Part shown: one piece after another, positions 2,612 to 3,126 of the stretch
How positions within the stretch are numbered: the first letter of the stretch is position 1
Layout: each line of letters starts with the position of its first letter
Assembly (NCBI RefSeq): GCF_003334385.1
Contig: NZ_QOWN01000095.1
DNA: 3,126 nt
Source of the DNA: Escherichia coli
GTDB taxonomy: Bacteria > Pseudomonadota > Gammaproteobacteria > Enterobacterales > Enterobacteriaceae
Strand: one strand, 5' to 3'
Notes under the pieces: generated by a model
What the model saw: only the letters and a program-made list of their open reading frames with translations
Told to the model about the DNA's origin: nothing
Database searches by the model: none
Translations under genes and position numbers: made by a program

Positions 2612-3126
2612 TCAGGCGGCTGCGCTCACTGTCACGGTGCATTCAACAGACGTCACACTCTGTGCTTTCTCTGCCGAATCGGTCACCACGCAGGTATATT
2701 TCCCCGCATCAGCGGACTGCGCACCTGGCTTACTGAAGGTGTCTGTCGTCTGACCGTCAACCGGCTGACCATCCTTCTTCCAGGCGTATTTATACGGCGG
2801 CGTTCCCCCGTTGGCACTGACTGACATTGTCAGCAGCGCACCGGTATTCACGGTAAGTGTCTTATCCAGATTTTTCCCAAACGCCAGCGGTACCACAAAG
2901 GACACCGGTTTGCCTTTCAGACGCAGTGAAAACGTTGCTGCCACCACGCCGTTGGTACCGGATGACCAGGTGTGCTGACGCACTTCCGCCAGGAACTTAA
3001 AGCCCTTACCGGACGGAAACTGCACCTTAAACGCATACAACGCGTCATTGTCATAGGCATCACGCAGGGCGTTCTGGGCCTGATTCAGATAAAAATTACC
3101 CGACATGGAAATCTCGGACGACGCCC
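2612..3126 (-). CDS. Phage major tail (tube) protein, lambda gpV-like, C-terminal part with Ig-like domain; partial, N-terminus beyond the window end
   Basis: Minus-strand ORF ends at TGA (plus 2612..2614). The frame stays open upstream of the ATG at 3106 to the window edge, and there is no Shine-Dalgarno before that ATG, so the true start is probably outside the window. The segment YAFKVQFPSGKGFKF resembles the lambda gpV mid-region (recalled as AYKIRFPNGTVDVF). The C-terminal ~80 aa carry an Ig-like signature (YKYAWKKDGQPV...ADAGKYTCVVTD). Located immediately upstream of the G/GT chaperone gene. Confidence 0.8.
   Translation of the reverse strand, partial: ASSEISMSGNFYLNQAQNALRDAYDNDALYAFKVQFPSGKGFKFLAEVRQHTWSSGTNGVVAATFSLRLKGKPVSFVVPLAFGKNLDKTLTVNTGALLTMSVSANGGTPPYKYAWKKDGQPVDGQTTDTFSKPGAQSADAGKYTCVVTDSAEKAQSVTSVECTVTVSAAA

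Follow-up and report, generated by a model that had tools for sequence, protein, structure and literature searches.

An immunoglobulin-superfamily domain at the C-terminus of an HK97 gp12-type major tail protein encoded by an Escherichia coli prophage

The window analyzed here is a 3,126-nt stretch of an E. coli genome (contig NZ_QOWN01000095.1, RefSeq assembly GCF_003334385.1), in which every real gene is encoded on the minus strand; together these genes make up the central part of a siphophage tail module (Table 1). Our subject is the C-terminal domain of its major tail (tube) protein, an immunoglobulin (Ig)-superfamily domain joined to the tube-forming core. The open reading frame (ORF) of the tube protein, 3124..2612 (−), is continuous; its N-terminal 68 residues fall outside the window, and homology was judged on the C-terminal 170 residues (hereafter the fragment, to which residue numbers refer). 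The gene order is that of HK97, that is, tail terminator, major tail subunit, G, G-T by −1 frameshift, and tape measure, the terminator gene being seen in relatives, where it lies upstream of the major tail gene.

Table 1. Features of the tail-module window, with the basis or extent of each assignment.
Feature	Position	Strand	Basis or extent
Major tail (tube) protein gene, 3′ part	2612..3126	−	C-terminal 170 residues plus stop; gene runs past the window end
Tube-forming core domain, C-terminal part, with linker	2888..3126	−	Fragment residues 1–79
Ig-superfamily (I-set/C2-like) domain	2624..2887	−	Fragment residues 80–167
Tail assembly chaperone, gpG / HK97 gp13 analogue, 124 aa	2220..2594	−	PHROG 344 (9.1e-47) and RefSeq annotation of relatives
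Slippery heptamer A_AAA_AAG	2223..2229	−	Directly before the TAG stop of G; read from the sequence
T-part reading frame of the G-T chaperone fusion	1915..2226	−	PHROG 337 (1.1e-39) and PHROG 14766
Tape measure protein gene, 5′ part, first 622 residues	1..1867	−	PHROG 339 (5.4e-231) and annotation of relatives; runs off the window

The fragment matched PHROG 158, 'major tail protein', end to end (8.9e-82). It shared 65% identity over 165 residues with HK97 gp12 and, likewise, with the HK446 major tail subunit, both domains being covered in each case, and was 98% identical to 238-aa E. coli prophage proteins annotated either as major tail subunit or as immunoglobulin domain-containing protein. 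Additionally, residues 2–74 matched Pfam Phage_tail_2 (E = 5.5e-4), and a full-length relative gave weak matches (E ~1e-4) to Phage_TTP_11 and Phage_tail_2. An AlphaFold2 model of the 170-residue fragment, with a predicted local distance difference test score (pLDDT) of 88.8, gave a two-domain match to lambda gpV chains 7t4f_A and 8iyk_D. Together with the gene order, these results bear out the assignment to a major tail protein made in the original prediction, and we regard the identification of an HK97 gp12-type tube protein with a C-terminal Ig-superfamily domain as virtually certain. We rejected attachment of the Ig domain through a programmed frameshift of the kind seen in SPP1 gp17.1*, since core and Ig domain share a single uninterrupted reading frame.

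The allele studied here ends ...SAAA* (TGA TAA) where close relatives have ...SAAAG* (GGA TAA), a single G-to-T change from GGA to TGA at 2612..2614 that drops the last residue, probably without consequence. At the other end, the RefSeq record of phage YYZ-2008 (5585..6370) starts at a GTG 23 codons upstream, for a protein of 261 aa; genomes annotated by the Prokaryotic Genome Annotation Pipeline (PGAP) give 238 aa.

The Ig domain was recognized both by sequence profiles and by structure prediction, the two approaches by which an Ig-like domain had been proposed to be verifiable. Residues 84–160 matched Pfam Ig_3 (8.4e-9), Ig_2 (2.1e-7), I-set (2.2e-7), and ig (2.5e-4), and the same families matched the full-length relative. 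The W-x-K-D-G and D-x-G-x-Y-x-C hallmarks on which the original prediction had drawn were found, together with the peptide it quoted, in the form of YAWKKDG, with the strand-C Trp, and DAGKYTC, the tyrosine corner; W, Y, and C were each conserved in at least 90% of 32 family members. In a sequence search of the PDB (phmmer), the top matches were phage Ig modules, specifically a four-Ig protein (9ncf_S, 2e-39) and gp20 of the Shigella phage Sf14 (9c2d, 2e-27; 9C2D and 9C3A are both Sf14 structures), with the T5 decoration protein pb10 at 1e-19 and 1e-17. Lower matches comprised the metazoan proteins LRIG1, DSCAM, Robo, contactin, and titin, as well as T4 and RB49 Hoc.

An AlphaFold2 model of the Ig domain alone, built on a 32-sequence alignment, had a mean pLDDT of 96.2 and strands at residues 81–84, 89–93, 98–105, 112–117, 129–132, 141–148, 156–158, and 162–167. 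The predicted structure was a beta-sandwich of two sheets with Greek-key topology that could be superimposed on solved Ig domains. At the level of this model, residues 80–167 (nt 2887..2624, ~88 residues) were confirmed as a compact Ig-superfamily beta-sandwich. The span first proposed, 2627..2863 (fragment residues K88–V166), thus held a real domain and was drawn slightly too narrow.

At the strand-B position the domain reads LTMSV, with Met in place of Cys by alignment to the Ig consensus. With this replacement, the canonical disulfide between strands B and F cannot form. That disulfide is typical of Ig domains and not obligatory, and intracellular I-set domains such as those of titin often do without it. 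A second Cys sits at the start of strand G (ECTVTV) and shows at least 90% conservation across the family.

Conservation within the Ig domain is highest at the motif G-G-x-x-P-Y-x-Y-x-W (2789..2809 on the minus strand, fragment residues 106–112), which is shared with T5 pb10 and gave a weak Pfam SprB-repeat match (E = 0.0034). A related x-Y-x-W version that lacks the GG/PY part occurs in other phage decoration modules. Judged by sequence, the full motif appears to characterise a phage or bacterial version of the Ig domain that differs from metazoan I-set sequences.

As to subtype, the domain had been predicted to be I-set-like and to differ from the Big_2 domain of lambda gpV. The second part held: the fragment had no match to Big_2 (PF02368) at E ≤ 10, while lambda gpV, the positive control run with the same tool, matched Big_2 at 1.5e-19 and Phage_TTP_12 at 2.5e-70. 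Moreover, BLASTP of the fragment against gpV detected no similarity between the C-terminal domains, its one weak alignment (E = 0.001, 26 residues) lying within the tube core. We therefore rejected membership in Big_2. The first part stood as regards the Ig superfamily, and several observations blur the line between a strict I-set assignment and Ig_3 or C2. Ig_3 outscored I-set in Pfam, and the top structural neighbour was annotated as C2-type, with I-set prototypes close behind. The I-set pattern of strands is A-B-E-D / A′-G-F-C-C′, that is, a split A/A′ strand with both C′ and D; the model has strands A (81–84) and A′ (89–93), whereas between C′ and E, a stretch of ~8 residues, DSSP assigned no D strand. 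The call between I-set and C2/Ig_3 is, on this model, ambiguous. The wording 'I-set' is nevertheless acceptable, because the phage literature uses that label for this class.

Conservation differed between the two parts of the protein. Across 53 family members, identity averaged 79% for the tube part and 51% for the Ig part, the latter being the more divergent in 51 of the 52 comparisons with the window protein, and all invariant alignment columns fell within residues 4–86. For HK97-like and Klebsiella phages, the match at the DNA level was confined to the tube-coding part, 2903..3126. A Burkholderia phage homologue in the same gene context, matched over residues 4–73 at 41% identity, is a major tail protein of 152 aa, which is too short for a C-terminal Ig domain and thus comprises the tube domain only. 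Conversely, the nearest Ig domains outside the tube-protein family belonged to Hoc-like/pb10 head-decoration proteins of T5-like phages, one of which, from a T5-like Salmonella phage, was 57% identical over 74 residues; the module also turned up in proteins carrying the annotations neck whisker, tail fibre, or tail protein. These comparisons support the suggestion, made at the outset, that the Ig domain was acquired modularly.

Variants of the domain were seen among relatives. In P0102, P0110, P0111 (242 aa), and P0114, which represent 90%-identity clusters, the frame switches within the Ig domain just after the conserved W-K-K. In P0102, P0110, and P0111 this results in a similar out-of-frame C-terminus (...SAGRPAQRL...NGAPGNRR) and the loss of the second half of the domain. 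Either genuine frameshift alleles or sequencing errors at homopolymers could account for these switches; at the corresponding point the window reads TGG AAG AAG GAT, with no A run. A 237-aa subgroup (P0099–P0107) has kept GGxxPYxYxW and lost the cysteine of Y-x-C (…GRRQVIVTD…), with no Pfam Ig score, and in the relative P0016 the Ig domain is followed by an additional C-terminal tail that is acidic and rich in Thr/Asp.

Among known systems, the closest is the group of HK97 gp12 (NP_037706) and its relatives in HK446, BP-4795 (ORF64), YYZ-2008 (gp59), and CP-933-type prophages, all with the same lambda-like core and one C-terminal Ig-superfamily domain. Gene order is shared as well, with the G/G-T −1 frameshift and the tape measure gene downstream. 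The differences amount mostly to allelic divergence, greater in the Ig domain than in the core, and the allele here is one residue shorter; unlike in HK97, no gap the size of a terminator separates the tail gene from G in the window. Lambda gpV has the same architecture, a core followed by an outward-facing C-terminal Ig-like domain (a placement that is presumed for the protein studied here). Its core is remotely related, with matches to Phage_TTP_12 in gpV and to Phage_TTP_11 in the full-length relative, whereas the C-terminal domains come from different families, Big_2 in gpV and Ig_3/Ig_2/I-set here.

For the Ig domain by itself, the closest solved relatives were the C-terminal domain of the T5 decoration protein pb10 (PDB 5LXK, 8ZVI), with 43–45% identity to the NMR (nuclear magnetic resonance) domain in Foldseek alignments, and the Hoc-like head decorations of T4 and RB49 (Hoc), Sf14 (gp20, 9C2D), Moo19, and N4. 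The pb10 and Hoc-like proteins share the GGxxPYxYxW and DxGxY motifs; their Ig domains, however, are joined to a capsid-binding domain and often occur as tandem copies, whereas here the partner is a tail tube core, and pb10 lacks the strand-F Cys. Identity to metazoan I-set/C2 domains (telokin, titin, DSCAM, Robo, and the MALT1 Ig) was ~15–28%. Compared with these, the phage domain is shorter, has no D strand in the model and Met for the strand-B Cys, and belongs to a virion protein made in the bacterial cytoplasm.

Taken together, the region is in all likelihood the C-terminal decoration domain of the tube protein of an HK97 gp12-type lambdoid E. coli prophage resembling Shiga toxin (Stx) phages, confidence being near-complete for the domain and its host protein and lower for service as an accessory adhesin. 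By analogy with the solved tails of lambda, T5, and other phages, the tube core would polymerise around the tape measure protein into stacked hexameric rings, from which each subunit's Ig domain would, as in lambda and T5, project outward on a short flexible linker; the tail would then bear a few hundred copies along its length. The lambda tape measure protein has 853 aa and its tail 32 rings. The tape measure proteins of relatives have ~1,080 aa, and scaling by length relative to lambda suggests a tail of roughly 40 rings and thus ~240 Ig domains.

The domain would be dispensable for forming the tube and would act as an adhesin of low affinity and high avidity for surface glycans, raising the efficiency of adsorption. 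Both steps follow the literature, in which tube Ig domains are described as dispensable for tube formation and some deletions lower infectivity (PMC9022992), and in which an accessory carbohydrate-binding role, with weak surface binding that aids adsorption, has been proposed (PMC5717097). For the adhesin mechanism as such, we put the chances at about even. Two points weigh against it. The outward-projecting geometry is drawn from the tails of lambda and T5 rather than from a structure of this tail, and the poor conservation of the Ig surface fits either a diversifying adhesion function or simply weak constraint. Among the possible roles, we rank accessory adhesion to the bacterial surface first, assembly or stability second, and adhesion to mucus third.

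An alternative to accessory adhesion is that the Ig domain chiefly contributes to the assembly or stability of the tail, by way of lateral contacts between subunits or rings, an effect on solubility, or control over polymerisation. This view gains from the retention of the domain in nearly all full-length enterobacterial family members retrieved; however, the 152-aa homologous tube protein has no space for it, the domain is far less conserved than the tube core, and the same module occurs on heads and in annotated whiskers and fibres, where assembly of a tube is irrelevant. Considering also the dispensability for tube formation described in the literature, we judge this alternative unlikely, although it is the best placed of those we weighed.

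Binding to animal mucus or epithelial glycans, following the bacteriophage-adherence-to-mucus model of T4 Hoc, would hold Stx-type phages in the gut mucosa, with no role in binding to the bacterial surface. The match of the domain to Hoc and Hoc-like decoration families is in keeping with it, as are its carriers, human-gut E. coli that include enterohaemorrhagic E. coli (EHEC) prophages, and a 2026 preprint in which phage Ig-like proteins displayed on phage K1F raised epithelial adherence and gut retention. The analogy is with Hoc-type modules, which can bind mucus or epithelium, and not with tube-protein Ig domains of this family. Moreover, the family is also found in prophages of the plant-associated Pectobacterium and Dickeya, which makes a mammal-specific ligand unlikely as a general function, and we consider mucus binding improbable.

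A further reading, to which we give slightly less credence again, combines a gut-mucus or epithelial glycan adhesin in Stx-converting phages with recent exchange of the module with head-decoration proteins of virulent T5-like phages. The suggestion of recent exchange arises because the 57% identity to the T5-like modules is about as close as that to the Ig domains of the protein's own orthologues (~51%). If true, the exchanged module would influence how Stx-converting phages are retained in the intestine and how they spread there. Finally, the idea that the Ig-like motifs are a chance resemblance, the region being just part of the tube core, is refuted by the Pfam matches, the PDB sequence search, and the predicted Ig fold with its structural neighbours, and with no point found in its favour its probability is negligible.

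The protein is widespread. The whole window was 99.5% identical over its full length to E. coli chromosomal prophages, and many Stx1- and Stx2-converting phages matched ~78% of its length at 94–97% identity. Of 5,426 complete E. coli genomes, 1,245 (~23%) carried a close DNA match to 2400..3126, in up to 7 copies per genome, mostly within Stx-type lambdoid prophages. That tube proteins of the HK97 gp12 type bear an Ig domain is correct and already known, according to the review PMC9022992 since the 2006 survey of phage Ig-like domains by Fraser and colleagues, which it summarises. In its Table 3, I-set domains are listed for the tube proteins HK97 gp12, ORF64 of the Stx phage BP-4795, and PY54 gp12. 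RefSeq, in turn, names the orthologues of YYZ-2008, 2851, and JLK-2012 "immunoglobulin domain-containing protein". The value of the present result is accordingly that of a correct annotation and little beyond, namely that a widespread E. coli prophage tube protein bears an Ig-superfamily decoration and not lambda's Big_2. The ligand and role of tube-borne Ig domains are a general question, for which this sequence is no easier a test case than HK97 or lambda.

Downstream of the tube gene, the canonical slippery heptamer A_AAA_AAG is, as read from the sequence, the −1 frameshift site that yields the G-T fusion, corresponding to the conserved G/G-T frameshift annotated in HK97, whose record labels the equivalent product 'translated due to a -1 frameshift'. 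Past the slip site, the −1 frame is open to 1915 for 103 further codons (KVARPEIRFLMRL...) and matches 'tail assembly protein T' families; in relatives it is annotated 'phage tail assembly protein T'. The PHROG 14766 profile has 224 positions, the first half of which matches G and the second half T. The start of the chaperone is ambiguous, as the mechanical ORF begins 16 codons upstream, inside the tail gene (to 2642), and RefSeq places it at MKKDL, 2594. Plus-strand ORFs of 47–55 aa overlapping 2593..2978 were rejected as spurious, since a minus-strand gene with strong homology explains the whole region.

Between the stop of T (1917..1915) and the start of the tape measure gene (1867) lies a hairpin with a 7-bp stem, GAACCGC-UGAG-GCGGUUU, followed by a U run (1886..1907, −). 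At the equivalent position, the records of HK97 and HK446 carry an annotated putative rho-independent terminator. The terminator scan did not pick up the hairpin at 1886..1907, and its direct folding z-score was modest (−1.8).

Within the tape measure gene, the segment ~247..922 (−) differed strongly from phage YYZ-2008: positions to 575 aligned at ~70–81% identity and positions 576–922 did not match, whereas the window outside that segment was 96% identical to the same phage. On these alignments, the divergent segment looks like mosaicism within the tape measure gene.
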